The notes under the pieces were generated by a model. The model made no database searches. It was not told the DNA's origin and saw only the letters and a list, made by a program, of their open reading frames with translations. A stretch of 64,000 nucleotides of DNA, taken from the NCBI GenBank assembly GCA_034521515.1, contig JAXHMH010000002.1:88379-152378 (forward strand), in the 5' to 3' direction. The position numbers and the translations under genes are program-made. This stretch comes from Candidatus Saccharimonadota bacterium (GTDB taxonomy: Bacteria; Patescibacteriota; Saccharimonadia; Saccharimonadales; JAXHMH01). Shown here piece by piece: positions 6,259-44,519 of this stretch (position 1 is its first letter; every line of letters starts with the position of its first letter).

Positions 6259-8515
6259 CTAAAAGTTTTTGAATCTCGGCTGACGATAATATGCGGTCGT
6301 ACACACGTACATAGCCGACTGTCCCATAGAATGGTCTTTAGCAACTGCTGCTGAATCTGCCGCCAATACCCATATGCGTATCCGTATTATCATCTGGTCA
6401 CTGGCCGGATACATAACTGCATTCAGAGGTTTCTGTTTTTTTGCCACATAAAAGCGTTGCTCATCGCCATCATATGTAAGCGTTAATAGATGCCAATCCG
6501 TGTCTACGGGGACGGATGTTCCACCTTGTGAGTAATTGCCATTAACCGCGGCTGCGTAGTTGCCTGATGTATTCGCGCCAATCCAATACGCAGAACTCCC
6601 TAACGTCGTTGAAGCTCCCTTGAACAAAAGATACGTCCATGTGCCCGTCCAGTAGCTAAACTTCGCCCAAACGGATATAGTTACCTCATCAATATTTTCA
6701 GGAATCGCCGGTACACTTAAGTGATCTTGGGAACTAGAAAAACTGTAGGCACTATTTGGCCTGCCGTGATGATCGGAAGTCATTGATACATCGCCGCCTG
6801 TTGATCCATCATTAGCATGCGGCGTACTGTCCTTGACATTACCGTTCAATGCCCAATGCGCGATAAGACCCCTCTGTAAATCCGAAATTTTTATATGTGA
6901 GCCTCCGGTTTTATATAGCTCCGCAGCACCCGTCGCGTCAATCGCGTAACTATGTACCCGAAAGCCATCAGCAAGACCTTCCCACATAGCAGTAGTACCC
7001 ATTTGTGAGCCAACGTAAAGTCCATCGCTATATGTAATGTTGTAGTTACTTGAGAATGTATCAGACAGAGCGCCGTCCTTGTATACCGATAACGTGTCAC
7101 CATCTTGACCCACAAACAGCCAGTGCGACCATGTGTCTTGCTCGAGGAGCTGCGTCGTATTAATGCTATTATCACCAATTTCTGTTTTTATTGAACCGTT
7201 AGCTCGTTGTGTAAGCTTAAAACCTGAGCCGTCCGTCATTGACAAGAAGCTGGACAAAAGTTCTGTACCACCATTTGTCTCCTCACTTGTGTTGAGCCAT
7301 AACGAAATGCTGAAATCGCTACTGGCATGCCTAAGGTTCGAGTGGTCTGGTATATGGACATAATCTGTACTACCATTAAAAGCAAGAGCCGCAGACGAGC
7401 GCTCAAACCTGTCTGACGCTGAAGTTGCTCCTGAAATCGTCCCATGGTTACTGTATGGAGTTGCATCCCGAGCGTGCCCATCCAGACTCCAATGCCCCGT
7501 CAACATCTTCTGTGCTTTAGAAATAGATATATCTTGATTATCACGGTATTGGTAACGAACTATCACGATACCAGAGCCTCCGTCACCGCCAGTTGAGCCT
7601 TCATCTAGACGTGGCCGCCACCGCCGCCACCGCCAGAGTTTGGAGCACCATCTTCTGCTGAAGCCACCAATCCCCTGAGCCGCTATCAATACCACCGTCA
7701 CCACCCCCACCGATACCTCCTACGCCGGGGCTGCACTATACCAGCGTGCACCGCCGCCGCCAGCAAATGCACCATTTTCCCCCCAGTTAGCAAATTGTGG
7801 AAAGTGTTTTCCTGCACCTCCATCAGTGGACGCTTCCCTGATGATTCAGCGCCACCGCCACCACCGCCGCGACGACTTGTGTGAACACTGGTAGAATTAC
7901 CGTCACTTCCATCATGACCCTGACCTGATACCCCAGTACCACCGGAGCCATTCGGACTATTTGAATGCGAGCCTCCACCGCCACCGGAACCCCCATTAAC
8001 TGCATGACGAACTGTACCGCTTGCCCCACCACCGCCTCCTCCGATGGCAGTAAGCGTCCCGAGCGTTGAGTCTCCGCCATTTTCACCTGTCTGTGCTTCA
8101 GTGGTTCCATCACCACCGGCTCCACCACCACCCACGACAATAGGTATGCTTGTATCAATATTAAAGTTTGATTCATATATAAGCCCACCTGCACCGCCTC
8201 CACCGCCGCGATAATACGCCGCCGAACCACCGCCTCCGCCTCCGCCTGCAACGACCAACACTTCAGCGTAACCCGACTCTACAACCGACAACGTACCAGA
8301 CTCCTTGAATGCGTGATATCTGTATCTTCCTATTTCTGCAACCTCACCTCCTTCAAAATGCGGATACACAACAGTACCTCCCGGCGACTCTGGAAGCCCA
8401 TCGATAAACATAATATAGCCGGCGCGTGCTACTGTTGAGAAAAGAATATAGAAACAAGCGACACCGAAGCAAGCAAATATCTGTTTTTACGAATTTTGCG
8501 GTAAAGTTCTTTCAT
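6259..8515 (-). pseudogene. secreted glycine-rich-domain plus tandem LamG/ConA-like lectin-domain protein, interrupted by several frameshifts
   Basis: Track ORFs 7698..8411 and 6259..7710 overlap. Between about 7600 and 7880 the sensible glycine-rich translation (GGAGKHFPQFANWGENGAFAGGGGARWYSAAP / VGGIGGGGDGGIDSGSG / EDGAPNSGGGGGGGH / GGDGGSGIVIVRYQY) hops between all three frames. The signal-anchor MKELYRKIRKN... starting at 8515 is joined only after a shift near an A5 run. The LamG-like repeats read HWSLDGHARDATPYSNHG...FNGSTDYVHIP and HWALNGNVKDSTPHANDG. Confidence 0.65.
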
Positions 8516-11487: not shown

Positions 11488-12849
11488 ATGGGTAAATCTG
11501 TTTGTATTTTAGGTCGCCAACCGGCATTAGGTTTAGCAGAACTTGAGAGTTTGTATGGCTCCGAAACCGTTTTGCCTATCGGCAATACTGGCGCTCTACT
11601 TAATCTTGAAGCCGACCACATCACCATGAGTCGGCTTGGCGGTAGCCTTAAACTTGGCCGTTACCTTACCGAACTGCCTTATACCGACTGGGGTCGGATT
11701 GAGCAGTTTTTAACCAAACAGTTGCCAGATTATACCGCCGACTTGGAGCCAGGTAAGATACGGCTAGGTCTGAGCCTCTACGGTTTTAATATTCATCCGC
11801 GCAAACTAAACGCCACCGGACTGACGCTAAAAAAAGCAATCCGTCAAACCAGTAAATCTGTCCGCGTCGTCCCCAACAAAACATCTGAGCTTAACGCTGC
11901 GCAGGTTATCCATAATCAACTTACCGGACCGAGCGGGTTTGAAGTATTGCTAATTAAACACCAAGATAAAACAATTGTGGCTCAAACTATCGCTGTACAA
12001 GATATCAATGCCTATGCCGCCCGTGACCAAGCTCGGCCAAAACGTGATGCTCGTGTCGGAATGCTGCCGCCAAAACTTGCACAAATTATTATAAACCTGG
12101 CAACAGGAGAAAAGAGTGTGGAGGCTGGAGAGTGGAAGTCAGGCTCAGCTACCGTGCTTGACCCGTTTTGCGGTACTGGTGTCGTGCTGCAGGAAACGAT
12201 GCTGATGGGCTATAACGCCTACGGCACTGATCTGGAGCCGCGTATGGTAGAGTACACCGCCACAAATCTAGATTGGCTGAATATCACATCTATCAAACAT
12301 CGGGTCAACCAGGGCGATGCCATGAATAAAGAGTGGGTCGAGCCGTTTAGCGTTATTGCGGGCGAGACCTATCTAGGTCGCCCCTTTTCTACTGTCCCGC
12401 GACCTGAAAAATTGCGTGAAGTCATGCAAGACGTAGATACCATTCACCGAGAATTCTTGCAAAACGTGGCGAGGCAGACCAAAAAAGGATTCCGTCTCTG
12501 CATTGCTGTCCCTGCCTGGTATCGCGGTGACACTGGCGGTGCCAGGGCTGTCAGGGCGAGTGCTGTGCACGGCGCAGATGAGCAACGGACTGAGCCGTAT
12601 ATAAAATACGGTGAAGGAGTAGCGCAATCTGCAACAAAGCACAGTGCCGCAAGCAAAGGCGGTGTTACGAGCACTGCTCGGAAGCAGGTCTTTGCGACTG
12701 ACAGATTCTGGCACCTGCCAGTACTTGATAATATCGAGGAATTGGGGTATACTCGGCAGAGTTTTGTTCACGTCTCAAAAGAAGACCTGATTTACCACCG
12801 AGAGGGGCAAATCGTCGGGCGCGAACTCGTAGTATTACAACGTAATTAA
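11488..12849 (+). CDS. SAM-dependent N-methyltransferase (UPF0020/Trm11-like fold) carrying a 63-codon structured insertion
   Basis: Motif I VLDPFCGTG, catalytic-loop region GETYLGRPF, and family-typical C-terminus LIYHREGQIVGRELVVLQR. Codons translating 12533-12721 are low-complexity (TGGARAVRASAVHGADEQ...). Confidence 0.75.
   Translation: MGKSVCILGRQPALGLAELESLYGSETVLPIGNTGALLNLEADHITMSRLGGSLKLGRYLTELPYTDWGRIEQFLTKQLPDYTADLEPGKIRLGLSLYGFNIHPRKLNATGLTLKKAIRQTSKSVRVVPNKTSELNAAQVIHNQLTGPSGFEVLLIKHQDKTIVAQTIAVQDINAYAARDQARPKRDARVGMLPPKLAQIIINLATGEKSVEAGEWKSGSATVLDPFCGTGVVLQETMLMGYNAYGTDLEPRMVEYTATNLDWLNITSIKHRVNQGDAMNKEWVEPFSVIAGETYLGRPFSTVPRPEKLREVMQDVDTIHREFLQNVARQTKKGFRLCIAVPAWYRGDTGGARAVRASAVHGADEQRTEPYIKYGEGVAQSATKHSAASKGGVTSTARKQVFATDRFWHLPVLDNIEELGYTRQSFVHVSKEDLIYHREGQIVGRELVVLQRN
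12533..12721 (+). other. structured element A: 189-nt (63-codon) in-frame insertion closed by a 20-bp terminal helix
   Basis: 12533-12545 pairs with 12708-12721 (13 bp, 1 bulge) and 12548-12554 pairs with 12698-12704 (7 bp). The core AGCAACGGACTGAGCCGTAT-ATAAA-ATACGGTGAAGGAGTAGCG is shared with element B. Confidence 0.6.
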
Positions 12850-12854
12850 CAACC

Positions 12855-13026
12855 CAGTCACTTAAGCCTCTTACTTGGATGCAGTACAAGGAAGTAACAA
12901 GTAGCGGATCGAGCCGTATGCACATACGGTGAGGAAGCAACGGAGTTACTGACGCAGTAATGCGCCAAGAAGTCAGCGGAGTTGCATGCTCCGCATGCAA
13001 GCAGGCTGACTGGTAAGAGGTTTAAG
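12855..13026 (+). promoter_or_regulatory. structured element B: rpmA 5' leader whose closing helix sequesters the Shine-Dalgarno
   Basis: 12861-12874 CTTAAGCCTCTTAC pairs with 13013-13026 GTAAGAGGTTTAAG (14 bp, one G.U that is valid only on the + strand). The 3' strand contains the SD AAGAGG and abuts ATG 13027. Internal hairpins lie at 12914-12929, 12946-12960 and 12982-13000. Confidence 0.55.
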
Positions 13027-13299
13027 ATGAGTAAAGTTAAAGCTGGTGGCTCAAGCAAGAATGTCCATGACAGTCCCGGACAAAGACTGGGCGTCAAACT
13101 ATTTGGCGGCCAAGAAGTTAAAACTGGTCAAGTAATCGTCCGTCAAACCGGCTCAACCAAACGCGCCGGTAAAGGCACATTTATTTCACGAAATTATACA
13201 ATCCACGCTGCAAAAGATGGGGTCGTCAAATTTACCAAGCGCCGTGTCCGCCGTTTTACTGGCAAAAGCGCACCGCGCACCGAAGTAACCGTCGAATAA
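13027..13299 (+). CDS. rpmA: 50S ribosomal protein L27
   Basis: MSKVKAGGSSKNVHDSPGQRLGVKLFGGQ... is canonical L27. The track ORF start at 12982 translates the leader, and ATG 13027 has the SD AAGAGG. Confidence 0.92.
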   Translation: MSKVKAGGSSKNVHDSPGQRLGVKLFGGQEVKTGQVIVRQTGSTKRAGKGTFISRNYTIHAAKDGVVKFTKRRVRRFTGKSAPRTEVTVE

Positions 13300-16047: not shown

Positions 16048-17643
16048 TTATTTTAAAGCTTTTATAAATCCGCTAAACATTGGGTGGGCGCGATTAGGAC
16101 GTGACTTAAACTCCGGGTGAAACTGGCTCGCCAAAAAGAATGGGTGATCGAGTCCTTCAATTATCTCTACCAAGTGACCGTCCGGACTGGTACCACTCGC
16201 TCTAATCCCCCAAGCTTGGTATTGATCTCGAAAATCGTTATTACACTCATAACGGTGACGGTGACGTTCTACAATGTTTGATGTTTTGTATACCTGTTCA
16301 GCTAAACTCTTTTTCACCAACTTACATGGATAATTACCCAGACGCATTGTGCCACCGGTATTTTCCTTGCCTTTTTGATCTGCCATAGTGTTAATCACCA
16401 AACACTTGCTGGTGTTGTCGAGTTCTTCAGAAGTCGCATCTTTGATTCCACCGTTGCGTGCAGCAGCCACTACTGCCATCTGTAGACCAAGGCATAGACC
16501 GAGATATGGAAGCTTGTTGGCGAGGGCATATCGAGCGGCGTTAATCTTACCTTCTAGCGCACGTGTACCAAACCCGCCAGGCACGACAACCCCGTCAATA
16601 TCCTGGAACACCGGGCTGAGATCTACGTCGCCTTCTAGCTTTTCAGCATTGATCCAGTGCAGATTTAGGTTTGTGTCATTCGCCCATGCAGCACTTTTGA
16701 GTGCCTCAAAAACCGACATATAGGTATCTTGGTTATCCATATATTTGGCGACAACTCCAATATCTACCGTGTTATTCTGCTTTGCCTTAGCACGATCCAC
16801 CATTTTGCGCCAATCTTTAAGGTGTGGTCTACTTACTCTTAAGTTTAGTCTCTTGGCTATAGTCTCGGTTATATTAGTGTCCTCTAGTGTAAGCGGCACT
16901 TCGTAAATACTCGAGGCATTAGGCAGCAGTGCTATGGCTTCTGGCGTTACACCGCTAAATAAGCTGAGTTTATTGATAACCGATTTAGGCGCCTTATCTT
17001 CACTTCGTGCCACCAATACATCCGGAACAATTCCGAGTCCTCTAAGGTCGCGAACAGCGTTCTGAGCCGGCTTTGTCTTCAGCTCACCGCTTGCACCAAG
17101 ATAAGGCAAATATACAACGTGCACGAACAAACTGTTTTCCCGACCAACCTCAAACGAGAGTTCACGGATGGCCTCAAGAAAACTCAATCCCTCATAATCA
17201 CCTACTGTACCGCCTATTTCTACAATATGGACATCAAACCCTTTGGCAGCCGCCTTGATTTGTTTCTGGATTGCCTTCGTAACATGCGGAATAAATTGCA
17301 CGGTTTTACCAAGATACTTACCACGGCGCTCGTCTTCAATGACTTGACGCAATACTCTCCCGCTCATCAAGCTACTGCTTTGCGTCAACTCTTGATCTAA
17401 AAACCTTTCATAATGCCCTAGATCCAAATCGGTTTCAGCACCATCCTTAGTAACAAAACACTCGCCGTGTTCTGCCGGATTTAGCGTACCAGCATCGGTG
17501 TTTAAATAAGGGTCGCACTTCTGAACGTTTACACTCAAGTTACGAGCTTTTAAGAGGTTGCCAATGGAAGCGGCCGTAATACCCTTTCCTAATCCAGAAA
17601 GCACACCACCAGTTACAAAAATGTATTTAGTCGGTTTTGCCAC
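16048..17643 (-). CDS. pyrG: CTP synthase
   Basis: KYIFVTGGVLSGLGKGI N-terminus and glutaminase domain GLCLGLQ. GTG start with AAGGGG upstream. Confidence 0.95.
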   Translation of the reverse strand: MAKPTKYIFVTGGVLSGLGKGITAASIGNLLKARNLSVNVQKCDPYLNTDAGTLNPAEHGECFVTKDGAETDLDLGHYERFLDQELTQSSSLMSGRVLRQVIEDERRGKYLGKTVQFIPHVTKAIQKQIKAAAKGFDVHIVEIGGTVGDYEGLSFLEAIRELSFEVGRENSLFVHVVYLPYLGASGELKTKPAQNAVRDLRGLGIVPDVLVARSEDKAPKSVINKLSLFSGVTPEAIALLPNASSIYEVPLTLEDTNITETIAKRLNLRVSRPHLKDWRKMVDRAKAKQNNTVDIGVVAKYMDNQDTYMSVFEALKSAAWANDTNLNLHWINAEKLEGDVDLSPVFQDIDGVVVPGGFGTRALEGKINAARYALANKLPYLGLCLGLQMAVVAAARNGGIKDATSEELDNTSKCLVINTMADQKGKENTGGTMRLGNYPCKLVKKSLAEQVYKTSNIVERHRHRYECNNDFRDQYQAWGIRASGTSPDGHLVEIIEGLDHPFFLASQFHPEFKSRPNRAHPMFSGFIKALK

Positions 17644-17795
17644 CGCTTTTTTACCCCTTATTTATGCCCTTAACTCTAGCATAGCCCCGCCCGAACCTAA
17701 AGTGTTTTATCTTATTAAAACTTCTTGCCTACCAATCCCAATTATCTAAAACGTGCTGTCATAGACTACTAACCCGCCTACTAGACCATATTTTC

Positions 17796-18410
17796 ACTAT
17801 TTCCAAGACCAGGTCCTGGAAATAGTCTACTGCTGCGAAGGCCGGGAGAATCAAATACCCTGTTACTTTTTGTCCGCTAAAAAGTAACCAAAAACCTCGT
17901 CACGGCTGAAAAAACAAGAGTACGAAGCAGCACTGGTTGGCCGCGCCGGCAGAACGACAAGCGGCTCCGCCAGTTTTTCTAGTTACTTTGGCGGAGCTTG
18001 ACTACCGGCTTGACTCGTCCAACCAGCACTCCTTCGCTTCTGTTTTTCAGATGTGACCCTCATTAGTTGTGTTCTTTTTAAAGAACACATAATTAACCGG
18101 AATGGCGAAGCCATTCCGGGGTCTGGCTCTGCAAAGTCCTGACTAGATGTTGTGTAAAAGAGGCGCCCTTGGGCGCGAGAGCTGTCTGACCCCTCACCAC
18201 TCTCGAAAGAGATGGTGAGGGGGAGTTCCGACAGCATTCCCTTTTTGCCTGCCACCAGGCAAAGCCTGCTGCGCCGCAAAAAGAGACGAACCAGCGAGCC
18301 TGTTTTAGACAACAGATAGATCAAGAGTTTGCAGTCGCCAGTCGGTTCTTTGCATACTTTCTTGCGACCAAGAAAGTATGGCGCATACGGGTCGCCTCGG
18401 CGACCGGCGC
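17796..18410. ncRNA. candidate large (~615 nt) highly structured RNA of unknown class
   Basis: At least 11 local hairpins and 2 long-range helices (details in findings). This is the largest non-coding gap in the window, and the only ORF in it (17983..18423) is compositional junk. The strand is unresolved. Confidence 0.5.
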
Positions 18411-18513
18411 AACAGTTATCCAAACAAAATTCGTATTACAATACATATCTATTGAGAATCATGTTATATCAAATATAAAAATGTGTTTTAGTTGAATTAC
18501 GTAATTGTTGGAA

Positions 18514-19719
18514 TTACTGTAACTGCTGCTTAGCGGCGTCGAGTTGTGGATCACGATCAGCCTCAAAATCGTCTTGAGTTAATTCAACCGTTTGATCGGG
18601 CTCTATGCCCTCCTTATCTATATTTCTGCCATCCGGCGTAAACCAACGTGCGATCGTAACTTTTAGTTGAGCACCTCCGCTTAATCGCACTAGACGCTGT
18701 ACGCTACCCTTACCATAGGTTTGTTCGCCGATAATGGTCGCCAACTCGTAGTCCTGTAAAGCACCGGCCACAATTTCGCTCGCACTCGCACTACCCTCGT
18801 TCAGCAATACAACCGTTGGCACGTCACGCAACAAAGCTGAGCCCTCGGAGCGGAATGTCTTGACTACGACATCCTCTCGTTTTTCTTCTAGAACCGTCTC
18901 GCCGTTCTCTACCCAAAGACCTGCTAAACTGACCGAGGCGTCCAGTAATCCTCCAGGGTTGTTGCGTAGATCAAGTATCACACCCTCAACGCCGACACTA
19001 CGGAACTTTTCGGCAGCCTCTTGTACCAACCTTTCGGTATCATTGCCAAACCGACTCACTTTCAAATAGCCTATACCGTCAGTTACTTCGGATTCAACAC
19101 TCGGAATAACTATTTTGTCACGGGTTATTGTCAACTCCAGCTGTTTTGATTGCTCACGGATGATTGTTAGCGTTACGTCGGTACCTTCTGGCCCACGGAT
19201 TTTACTTACTGCCTCGCTTACAGAAATATCGTAAGCGTTTTCGCCGTCTATCTCGGCTACAATATCTTGAGCGCGAAGGCCGGCTGCTTCTGCAGGAAAA
19301 CCCGAAATGGGTGCCACGATAGTTATATAGTTATCTTCACTCTTGCTAAGCTCAGCACCAATACCGGTAAATGTCCCGGAAAGCCCTTCTTCAAAATCAG
19401 CCGACTCTTCAGCATCCAAATATTCCGTGTAAGGATCACCCGTCGCTCCAGCCAAGCCTTCTTTGAGTCCGTCCATGAGTTCATCAAGTTCAAGCTGTCC
19501 GTCGTAATTATTACGTAGTGATGAGTACAAATCTTGTACCTCATTCATGTCAAGCGAATCTGGTAAATCTTGGTTGGTACTTATGGGATCAACTGATGAT
19601 AGATTGAATTGCAGTGTTCCGTTTCCAACCAAAAACCCCAAAGAAAAAATAACTACAACTACAAAAATTGATTTTGCCCAGCTCGGCACTGTAATAGAAT
19701 TGCGCGATCCACGCCCCAT
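18514..19719 (-). CDS. S41 family C-terminal processing peptidase with PDZ domain
   Basis: N-terminal TM anchor, PDZ (GFPAEAAGLRAQDIVAEIDG), and catalytic region LLNEGSASASEIVAGALQD. Confidence 0.85.
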   Translation of the reverse strand: MGRGSRNSITVPSWAKSIFVVVVIFSLGFLVGNGTLQFNLSSVDPISTNQDLPDSLDMNEVQDLYSSLRNNYDGQLELDELMDGLKEGLAGATGDPYTEYLDAEESADFEEGLSGTFTGIGAELSKSEDNYITIVAPISGFPAEAAGLRAQDIVAEIDGENAYDISVSEAVSKIRGPEGTDVTLTIIREQSKQLELTITRDKIVIPSVESEVTDGIGYLKVSRFGNDTERLVQEAAEKFRSVGVEGVILDLRNNPGGLLDASVSLAGLWVENGETVLEEKREDVVVKTFRSEGSALLRDVPTVVLLNEGSASASEIVAGALQDYELATIIGEQTYGKGSVQRLVRLSGGAQLKVTIARWFTPDGRNIDKEGIEPDQTVELTQDDFEADRDPQLDAAKQQLQ

Positions 19720-36163: not shown

Positions 36164-36407
36164 AAGTTATAAAAGAAGAATACGCCTTGGTGCTACGACC
36201 AAAGCTTGGACTTGTTTACAGGCGATAAAATTCTATAAAAACTCATGGCCACTATTTTTCCATACATTAGCACTCTTAGCAAATAGCGATAAAAGTCAAG
36301 ATATCTTAAAAACCACAAAAAACTTTACTTAACTAAATTTACTATTTTTTAAAACATATGTTCCATTTTGTTTGAGCTTTTTCTACCCTAGTTTTTCGGA
36401 TTAGAAA

Positions 36408-36438
36408 TAAACGCGCCACTCGACTGGCGCGTTTATTT
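36408..36438 (-). terminator. bidirectional intrinsic terminator downstream of greA; 31-nt sequence repeated at 44489-44519
   Basis: TAAACGCGCCACTCGACTGGCGCGTTTATTT has stem AAACGCGCCA/TGGCGCGTTT with A- and T-tracts on both sides. Confidence 0.75.
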
Positions 36439-36448
36439 ATATACTGAT

Positions 36449-44270: not shown

Positions 44271-44316
44271 AAATACTTTCAATTTATTGACGGCCGTCAA
44301 TAAATTGAAAGTATTT
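44271..44316. repeat. perfect 46-bp palindrome (23-bp arms, no spacer)
   Basis: AAATACTTTCAATTTATTGACGG|CCGTCAATAAATTGAAAGTATTT, followed by TTTTATTT on the + strand. Confidence 0.9.
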
Positions 44317-44488: not shown

Positions 44489-44519
44489 TAAACGCGCCAC
44501 TCGACTGGCGCGTTTATTT
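44489..44519 (+). terminator. intrinsic terminator, 31/31 identical to 36408-36438
   Basis: Same hairpin TAAACGCGCCACTCGACTGGCGCGTTTATTT. It sits in a divergent intergenic region, which implies a short + strand transcript ending here. Confidence 0.7.

Follow-up and report, generated by a model that had tools for sequence, protein, structure and literature searches.

Among described bacterial repeats, REPs are 20–40 nt long, carry a GTAG or CGTC tag and have a RAYT partner gene, and ERIC elements are confined to enterobacteria and vibrios and are not known to lie in frame inside genes. Rickettsia palindromic elements (RPE), reportedly described by Ogata et al. in 2000, are short palindromes of about 100–190 nt, dispersed both in frame in housekeeping genes and in intergenic regions, inserted in tolerant loops and with no known transposase. 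We describe here an element, A, that resembles RPE in these respects (its loop by prediction). It lies inside a methyltransferase gene of a Candidatus Saccharibacteria metagenome-assembled genome (MAG), in a stretch of 64,000 nt (contig JAXHMH010000002.1, positions 88,379 to 152,378; hereafter the window). A and a second copy, B, belong to an apparently undescribed repeat family, whose structured palindromic copies are dispersed in Patescibacteria. A itself is probably an old copy of this repeat, placed in frame in a surface loop of the methyltransferase and most likely read through.

The segment 12525–12730 of the window folds at −104.3 kcal/mol, against −69.6 ± 4.5 kcal/mol in 200 dinucleotide shuffles, none of which is as good (z = −7.66). 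The gene and the parts of the element are as follows.

11488–12849, plus strand: host open reading frame (ORF) of 453 aa (protein P0001), from the ORF list
12532–12722, plus strand: element A as a whole, Y-shaped, made of closing stem, core rod and accessory hairpin, from folding
12532–12554, plus strand: 5′ arm of the A closing stem, inserted sequence, encoding T-G-G-A-R-A-V-R, from the fold and ortholog comparison
12540–12666, plus strand: region of A matched by covariance model R1 (96.0 bits, E = 2.5e-22)
12592–12614, plus strand: apical hairpin of A, GAGCCGTAT-ATAAA-ATACGGTGA, from the fold and the family alignment
12653–12695, plus strand: accessory hairpin H2 of A, a Saccharibacteria-type module, from the fold and ortholog alignment
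12698–12722, plus strand: 3′ arm of the A closing stem, native host coding sequence for T-D-R-F-W-H-L-P-V, from the protein alignment and the insert-free DNA of loci L139 and L140

The closing stem has 23 bp (12532–12554 with 12698–12722), and the core rod (12556–12650) consists of short helices with purine-rich internal loops between them. The apical stem has 7 bp with an opening G.U pair and tandem G-A / G-A on its flanks, and covaries in divergent copies (CCGTAC/GTACGG and ACTGTAC/GTACAGT, for example). H2 has a conserved internal loop (G.GU ... A.C.G, AGCAGG-like), and in its helix 6 both sides have changed in 11 of 17 pairs. The 5′ arm of the closing stem repeats in inverted form the host codons of the 3′ side, and among six orthologs its outer 12 nt occur only in the window lineage. 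All of A is in frame and free of stops within the host ORF.

Homologs of P0001 are annotated as Trm11 or S-adenosylmethionine-dependent methyltransferase (Pfam PF01170, PF13847 and PF01555; Trm11/UPF0020-type), and the gene order LPG synthase, methyltransferase, L27 is kept in the loci whose flanks were recovered. We compared the 120 best P0001 homologs, all full length. A is missing from 87 of them, which have just five residues between A-V-P-A-W and F-x-H-L (K-T-A-S-G in L139), and 15 carry inserts at this site, which establishes A as an insertion. Seven of the 120 have a sense insert with the peptide EQRTEPYMKYGEG, and across these seven orthologs the peptide EQRTEPYMKYGEGVAQ is conserved. 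Two more, P0058 and P0006, have inserts of 58–59 aa of unrelated sequence: in P0058 the whole element is inverted at the same methyltransferase site, in frame (L127:2557-2686, minus strand), and the P0006 insert, an in-frame rod hairpin (L126:2515-2735), is probably a divergent inverted copy. Short inserts of 12–26 aa occupy the same site in P0034, P0043, P0045, P0068, P0070 and P0092; these may be deletion remnants of the element, and that of P0034 contains EQR.

The insert-free DNA at the site reads TGG AAA ACC GCC AGC GGT TTC AAA CAC in L139, and L140 is similar. Measured against it the net insertion is 57 codons here and 53–65 codons in the other orthologs. The 3′ junction is fixed across orthologs, and between the W codon and the core lie 60–96 nt, with differences that are always multiples of 3; the window lineage has an additional ACTGGCGGTGCC that mirrors GGCACCTGCCAGT. 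In five of the six aligned insert-bearing orthologs the 3′ arm has W (TGG) in place of the usual K codon, and this TGG pairs with CCA of the 5′ arm; L124 has GTG there. In the AlphaFold2 model of P0001 (mean pLDDT, the per-residue confidence score, 79.5) residues 349–404 score below 50 (about 30) and their flanks 72–96, with a confident strand at 336–345 before them and the C-terminal elements after; the A insert is predicted to form a disordered loop outside the methyltransferase fold.

An earlier examination of the same letters without database searches (the sequence-only reading) had already noted a hairpin-closed structure in this gene, with boundaries off by only 1 nt, and a homologous element downstream, which we confirm as B. 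It had also given a length of exactly 63 codons, which proves to be a coincidence of where the stem ends, the net insertion relative to insert-free orthologs being 57 codons (171 nt). Its suggestion that deleting the hairpin would cleanly restore the protein does not hold: the 3′ arm (12698–12722) encodes the native, family-wide motif F-x-H-L-P-V-L-D. As the insert-free DNA shows, this arm is native coding sequence, and deleting the hairpin would remove a conserved motif. Three points had been overlooked, namely the host-coding 3′ arm, the ancient orthologous nature of the insertion and its conservation at the nucleotide level.

Loci with the exact core number at least 120 among one-genome-per-species contigs, where by our estimate random sequence of the searched size would give about 87 chance matches. 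Nearly all are from Patescibacteria (Saccharibacteria, Kaiserbacteria, Campbellbacteria, Peregrinibacteria and others), with a few from MAGs outside the candidate phyla radiation (CPR). In nearly all core loci the flanks, with differing sequences, form the same rod, and about five were excluded as chance matches. In an alignment of 94 members, pairing holds for 89.2% of cells and falls to 30–44% when partners are slid by 1–3 columns, and the covariation score is 0.556 against 0.08–0.11; none of 500 shuffles reaches the observed values. Single column pairs hold mixtures such as GC36 / AU26 / UA22.

With covariance model R1, A and B each reach 96 bits (E about 1e-22), and the window yields no third copy. 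Related genomes do hold further copies: in 0.74 Mb of related loci R1 finds 124 copies in 100 loci, many 8-kb loci having 2–4. The family has a core rod of about 125 nt, to which Saccharibacteria copies add the hairpin of about 45 nt. Unpaired purine-rich loops, and G.U pairs at particular positions, are conserved in copies from different phyla, and the hairpin stem is conserved while its loop varies from 3 to 7 nt. An inner P1 (YTTGR / YCAAR) is common to the copies; the closing stem is different in each and made up in part of host sequence. Many copies were seen in groundwater MAGs labelled Deltaproteobacteria (L018, L029, L038, L041, L043, L063, L071, L075 and L081; about 42–43% GC), as a subtype with the 7-nt loop ATCACCA; this indicates either spread beyond Patescibacteria or mis-binning.

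Rfam 15 (4,227 families) was searched with the window and 16 related loci at gathering score, with 12400–13100 at E <= 10 and with 17400–18600 at E <= 1. No family overlaps any copy, the sole match at E <= 10 being a spurious one to mir-344 (16 bits). At gathering score the whole window (1–64000) has no RNA gene, tRNA included. Blastn against plasmid and phage collections gave no match to the family, and the four matches among viral contigs (IMG/VR) are the bare hairpin lacking the rod, at chance level, with no complete element. Full-text literature searches on CPR and Saccharibacteria repeats and structured RNAs, and on the core sequence, turned up no description of the family. Other motif classes were considered and dropped: a DNA uptake sequence; a dimeric operator, as the spacing varies; an SRP-like motif, having no Rfam match; and box C/D or k-turn RNA, whose motifs are not conserved between A and B. 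Integron attC sites have R''/R' boxes (RYYYAAC ... GTTRRRY) and form same-orientation cassette arrays; they were rejected, the copies here being dispersed in core operons in both orientations, with no R boxes evident at the ends inspected (no dedicated motif search was made).

The age of A and B can be read from their orthologs. Six A copies align gaplessly over 232 columns, with 85.4% of cells paired against 31–45% in slid controls; none of 500 shuffles reaches the observed values, and both sides have changed in 35 of 72 pairs. Identities are 58–87% between A copies, 75–76% between B copies and 52–65% between A and B. The copies cluster by site and not by genome, and therefore A and B each go back to a single insertion that predates the split of these lineages. 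Identity between the host proteins is only 51–59%, and at their four-fold sites 0.34 (saturated); the inserts are about 67% identical at all three codon positions. Substitution rates at the three positions are 0.29 / 0.26 / 0.33 in the insert and 0.375 / 0.23 / 0.54, the usual coding pattern, in the host-derived arm. Because the insert's rates are nearly equal, it is constrained as nucleic acid and not as peptide; A and B are ancient orthologous insertions under nucleotide-level purifying selection. In a rough neighbour-joining tree the insert-bearing genes are scattered among insert-free ones, which, given the orthology of the inserts, means repeated loss.

B is a sister copy of A, inserted into the junction of 1–3 nt between the methyltransferase gene and rpmA. 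The features here are the following.

12856–13032, plus strand: element B as a whole, intercistronic, between the methyltransferase stop (12847–12849) and the rpmA start, from folding and the covariance model
12861–12874, plus strand: 5′ arm of the B closing stem, CTTAAGCCTCTTAC, anti-Shine-Dalgarno, from inverted repeat I25
13013–13026, plus strand: 3′ arm of the B closing stem, GTAAGAGGTTTAAG, directly before the ATG at 13027, from sequence and fold
13027–13299, plus strand: rpmA, ribosomal protein L27 (PF01016), an ORF whose downstream position is conserved in all orthologous loci

B has the same architecture and core motif as A, with many compensated substitutions between the two; the core motif occurs twice in the window, with no occurrence expected by chance. 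Its fold has −76.8 kcal/mol (z = −8.05) and an R1 score of 96.6 bits, and its parts are the rod (12876–12967), the apical hairpin (12911–12932) and H2 (12971–13011). The closing stem of 14 bp, whose 5′ arm starts 11 nt past the methyltransferase stop, holds the rpmA Shine-Dalgarno (SD) sequence AAGAGG (13015–13020) in its 3′ arm, and this SD/anti-SD pairing covaries between the window and L124. In insert-free loci 1–3 nt separate the methyltransferase stop from the L27 ATG, and the SD sits in the last methyltransferase codons (AAGAGGAAG in L121, AGGAAG in L123 and L126); in loci carrying B it is gone from those upstream codons. The B stem could plausibly mask the SD until ribosomes terminating upstream lift it, and translation of L27 would then be gated by, or coupled through, the stem.

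Most copies of the family are intergenic, in tight cistron junctions such as gyrB|gyrA, ftsW|murG, after rplE and DEAD helicase|xseA, and in several Parcubacteria directly after rplB in the L3-L4-L2 cluster. In L008 the element contains the last four ftsW codons plus the stop. In L046 (1569–1891) a tRNA-Gly gene (1693–1766) lies between two copies of opposite orientation, 0–3 nt away, with tRNA-Thr following; the sense copy would form the 5′ leader of pre-tRNA-Gly. Where the neighbours are co-directional, the strand with the G.U pairs and tandem G-A runs antisense to them 42 times and sense 17 times. Of 114 copies, 99 fold more stably on this strand than on the opposite one (−89 vs −78 kcal/mol). 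Automatic detection of the outermost stem overextends by spurious long-range pairs, and only clean cases were used.

Copies inside genes occur in both orientations. Sense in-frame copies are those of this methyltransferase, PurL (L049) and GuaA (L077); antisense in-frame copies are found in IleRS of oral Saccharibacteria, in Dus (L120) and, twice, in Fpg (L117). The Fpg/MutM gene in question (L117:6270-7559, minus strand, 430 aa) has its copies at 6414–6541 and 7191–7318. The IleRS copy is one orthologous insertion present in L022, L026, L027, L032, L042, L047, L055, L061, L066 and L107; its carriers include oral Nanosynbacter / taxon 488 strains (L027) and a complete genome of a named strain, CP128407 (oral taxon 488). 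Saccharibacteria are reported to be amenable to transformation (PMC10633639). The same methyltransferase has a second site of insertion in P0007, which owes its length of 528 aa to an extra in-frame copy (L125:1460-1587, 37 bits). Searching 1.84 billion representative proteins with the A peptide found it also inside RluD-like, PrmC, NrdR and DHFR-like proteins, and gave many ORFs of 57–101 aa that were presumably called over intergenic copies. The second-best match after self, P0121 (nine stretches), is a false positive, an unrelated repetitive surface protein.

These patterns suggest how the element may move and grow. A was inserted between A-V-P-A-W and F-x-H-L-P with the frame kept, as happens with RPE. 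In both copies of the window one arm of the closing stem belongs to the insert and the other is native to the host (the F-W-H-L-P-V codons for A, the rpmA Shine-Dalgarno for B), and such stems could grow by inverted copying of the 3′ flank, for instance by template switching at the hairpin. Recombination between the stem arms could then invert the interior in place and give rise to the antisense copies found at the same site; that the insert of P0058, and probably that of P0006, is inverted yet in frame suggests just such an in-situ inversion. The functional or mobile form may be single-stranded, of one particular strand.

The sequence-only reading had left two explanations open, an in-frame palindromic insertion of mobile type and an element removed or acting at the RNA level. 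The former is supported by the dispersed family, the 87 of 120 orthologs that have no insert, the in-frame copies in both orientations and the loop with pLDDT below 50; the insert is most likely translated, as a disordered loop of about 57 residues. Several points weigh against this explanation. The stop-free reading is weakly informative, since 22–26% of column-permuted alignments are also stop-free. Ascertainment is biased, as the insert-bearing orthologs were found via intact proteins; a metagenome scan for the P-A-W codons, a gap and the core hairpin returned seven matches, two of them real A sites and both identical to P0016. R1 finds just the two copies A and B in the 64 kb. As for mobility, the A and B junctions show no clear target-site duplication, the copies share no terminal repeats (their closing stems differing from one to the next), and among 1,113 clustered neighbouring ORFs no transposase or reverse transcriptase recurs, only syntenic housekeeping genes. 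Finally, a purely selfish dead insertion predicts neither nucleotide-level purifying selection on orthologous copies nor an orientation bias such as 42 antisense against 17 sense.

The selfish part of this explanation, though not the insertion history, is rivalled by a cis-acting RNA device co-opted by the host for gating or coupling translation, for processing of RNase III or RNase P type, or for stabilising mRNA. We entertain this tentatively. It is favoured by the purifying selection and compensatory changes in A and B orthologs whose host synonymous sites are saturated, by the cross-phylum conservation of unpaired purine-rich loops and position-specific G.U pairs, by the copies in core-operon junctions (gyrB|gyrA, ftsW|murG, after rplE, after rplB) and in a tRNA-Gly leader, and by the covarying SD/anti-SD stem of B. 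However, most copies are antisense to their neighbours, so that the operon mRNA would contain the poorer-folding complement; A and B are missing from many orthologs, so neither is essential; and in-frame copies of either orientation inside coding regions are left unexplained. Somewhat more doubtful is a non-autonomous transposon moved in trans as a single strand, either as single-stranded DNA (ssDNA) by HUH/Y1 enzymes (IS200/IS605-derived PATEs, REP-RAYT) or as RNA by a reverse transcriptase. Arguments for it are the better fold of one strand in 99 of 114 copies, irrespective of how the neighbouring genes run; a conserved stem with a variable 3–7-nt loop, which suits hairpin recognition and not a duplex operator; a bias of orientation with respect to the direction of genes, and so probably to that of replication; and the patchy occurrence beyond Patescibacteria with many copies in one Deltaproteobacteria MAG group. 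On the other hand no Y1, RAYT, TnpB or reverse transcriptase gene recurs near the copies, neither a constant target motif in the flanks nor a target duplication was observed, the plasmid and phage collections lack the family, and the copies studied in detail are ancient and not recently moved. Both ideas can be cast as a functional, strand-specific nucleic-acid module long maintained in CPR, to which, taking its two versions jointly, we give a minor though appreciable chance: either an RNA device retained by the host in operons and coding regions, whose flank-pairing stem gates the next cistron or directs processing, or the first bacterial repeat shown to spread and persist, in the manner of SINEs or PATEs, by way of an intermediate that is single-stranded and folded, its closing stem being built by inverted copying of the target flank. 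Either version would explain the purifying selection, the conserved G.U pairs and purine loops, the strand asymmetry and the copy-specific stems.

Removal at the RNA level, as a mini-intron or as a sequence excised by RNase III in the way known from rRNA, is very improbable. A fold strongly conserved in a coding region without codon-position periodicity is an intron-like pattern, the near-perfect 23-bp closing stem would be an RNase III substrate, and the core hairpin GAGCCGUAU...UACGGU resembles the lower helix of domain V in group II introns, in its 9 nt, the G.U pair after AGC and the complementary UACGGU. This domain V is a hairpin of 34 nt that has an AGC triad, a 2-nt bulge and a GNRA loop, and the Rfam family of these introns is presumably RF00029. 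The element's hairpin lacks the bulge, the upper helix and the GNRA loop, the other intron domains are absent, and we rejected domain V on the 7-bp stem, the variable 3–7-nt loop, the missing bulge and the lack of any Rfam intron or ribozyme match even at E <= 10. Moreover the six A copies are gapless and in frame, and their 5′ junctions differ only by multiples of 3; the frame also stays open in the inverted copies, whether at this site or in IleRS, Fpg and Dus, which a strand-specific ribozyme would not explain; the conserved F-x-H-L-P-V would be lost along with an excised stem; the family is mostly intergenic; and the four junctions with Pfam-nameable flanks separate complete, distinct genes, with no split gene among them. 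The sequence-only suggestion of RNA-level removal thus finds no support. Less credible still is a lineage-specific linker or mini-domain selected as protein, for which the peptide EQRTEPYMKYGEGVAQ, conserved in the seven orthologs, could be cited. It is effectively refuted by the intergenic copies, more than 100 of which have the same nucleotide core and contain stops, and by the lack of codon-position periodicity; the segment is also disordered in the AlphaFold prediction, and antisense versions with unrelated peptides occupy the same site. We keep to an old, in-frame copy of a dispersed repeat as the probable explanation of A.

Elsewhere in the window, the stretch at 17644–18513 (about 870 nt), with a minus-strand gene on either side, lacks a convincing ORF and matches nothing in Rfam at E <= 1. 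It includes a rod-like hairpin of 160 nt at 17899–18057 (−66 kcal/mol, z = −4.4) that is not an R1 match. Positions 44271–44316 form a perfect, spacerless palindrome of 23+23 nt, and palindromes at 36402–36441 and 44489–44516 share TAAACGCGCCACTC / GACTGGCGCGTTTA; these three may represent a further small type of repeat or terminator.

CPR/Patescibacteria genomes are among the most streamlined, yet structured inserts of 120–190 nt have been kept for very long in core-operon junctions and in the frames of essential enzymes. If this conservation reflects function, there is a widespread class of RNA (or ssDNA) absent from Rfam, with a role in operon expression in a superphylum whose regulation is nearly unexplored. 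If it reflects selfish persistence, the family adds a second case, independent of the first, of "selfish DNA in protein-coding genes", with a much clearer structure signal than in Rickettsia and a visible mechanism by which a palindrome grows into host sequence. In either event annotation of CPR genomes is affected, through inflated protein lengths, spurious small ORFs and apparently conserved peptide motifs such as EQRTEPYMKYGEG.

Compared with known repeats, the family is like ERIC/IRU and REP/BIME in consisting of imperfect palindromes with compensatory changes in transcribed intergenic regions of operons, often after stops. It is set apart from REP and ERIC by description, no sequence similarity being known; the elements are 120–190 nt long, no associated gene recurs, and no GTAG/CGTC tag is evident in the flanks inspected (no dedicated motif search was run). 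MIRUs are intercistronic operon repeats that keep termination and initiation coupled, to be compared with B before rpmA, but they are tandem direct repeats encoding small ORFs and not structured palindromes. Small, non-coding, multi-copy, hairpin-capable MITEs (including Correia/NEMIS), possible RNase III substrates, are also similar; they differ by terminal inverted repeats common to the whole family, by target-site duplications and by a parent insertion sequence. Here no terminal inverted repeats are common to all copies, which share only the inner P1, and neither a clear duplication nor a parent element was found in the loci at hand. With RPE the family has in common the multi-copy palindrome, in-frame copies with insert-free orthologs and a predicted tolerant loop. 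The comparison with RPE is one of descriptions, and the present family belongs to another superphylum; unlike RPE it has a covarying fold with purine-rich loops and G.U pairs shared across phyla, nucleotide-level purifying selection on orthologs, and a closing stem that recruits host flank. By analogy the element is best filed as an RPE-, ERIC- or MIRU-like family, new and structurally well defined, in Patescibacteria. What goes beyond the known picture is the fold covarying across phyla, the nucleotide-level selection on ancient orthologs and the closing stems drawn from host flanks.

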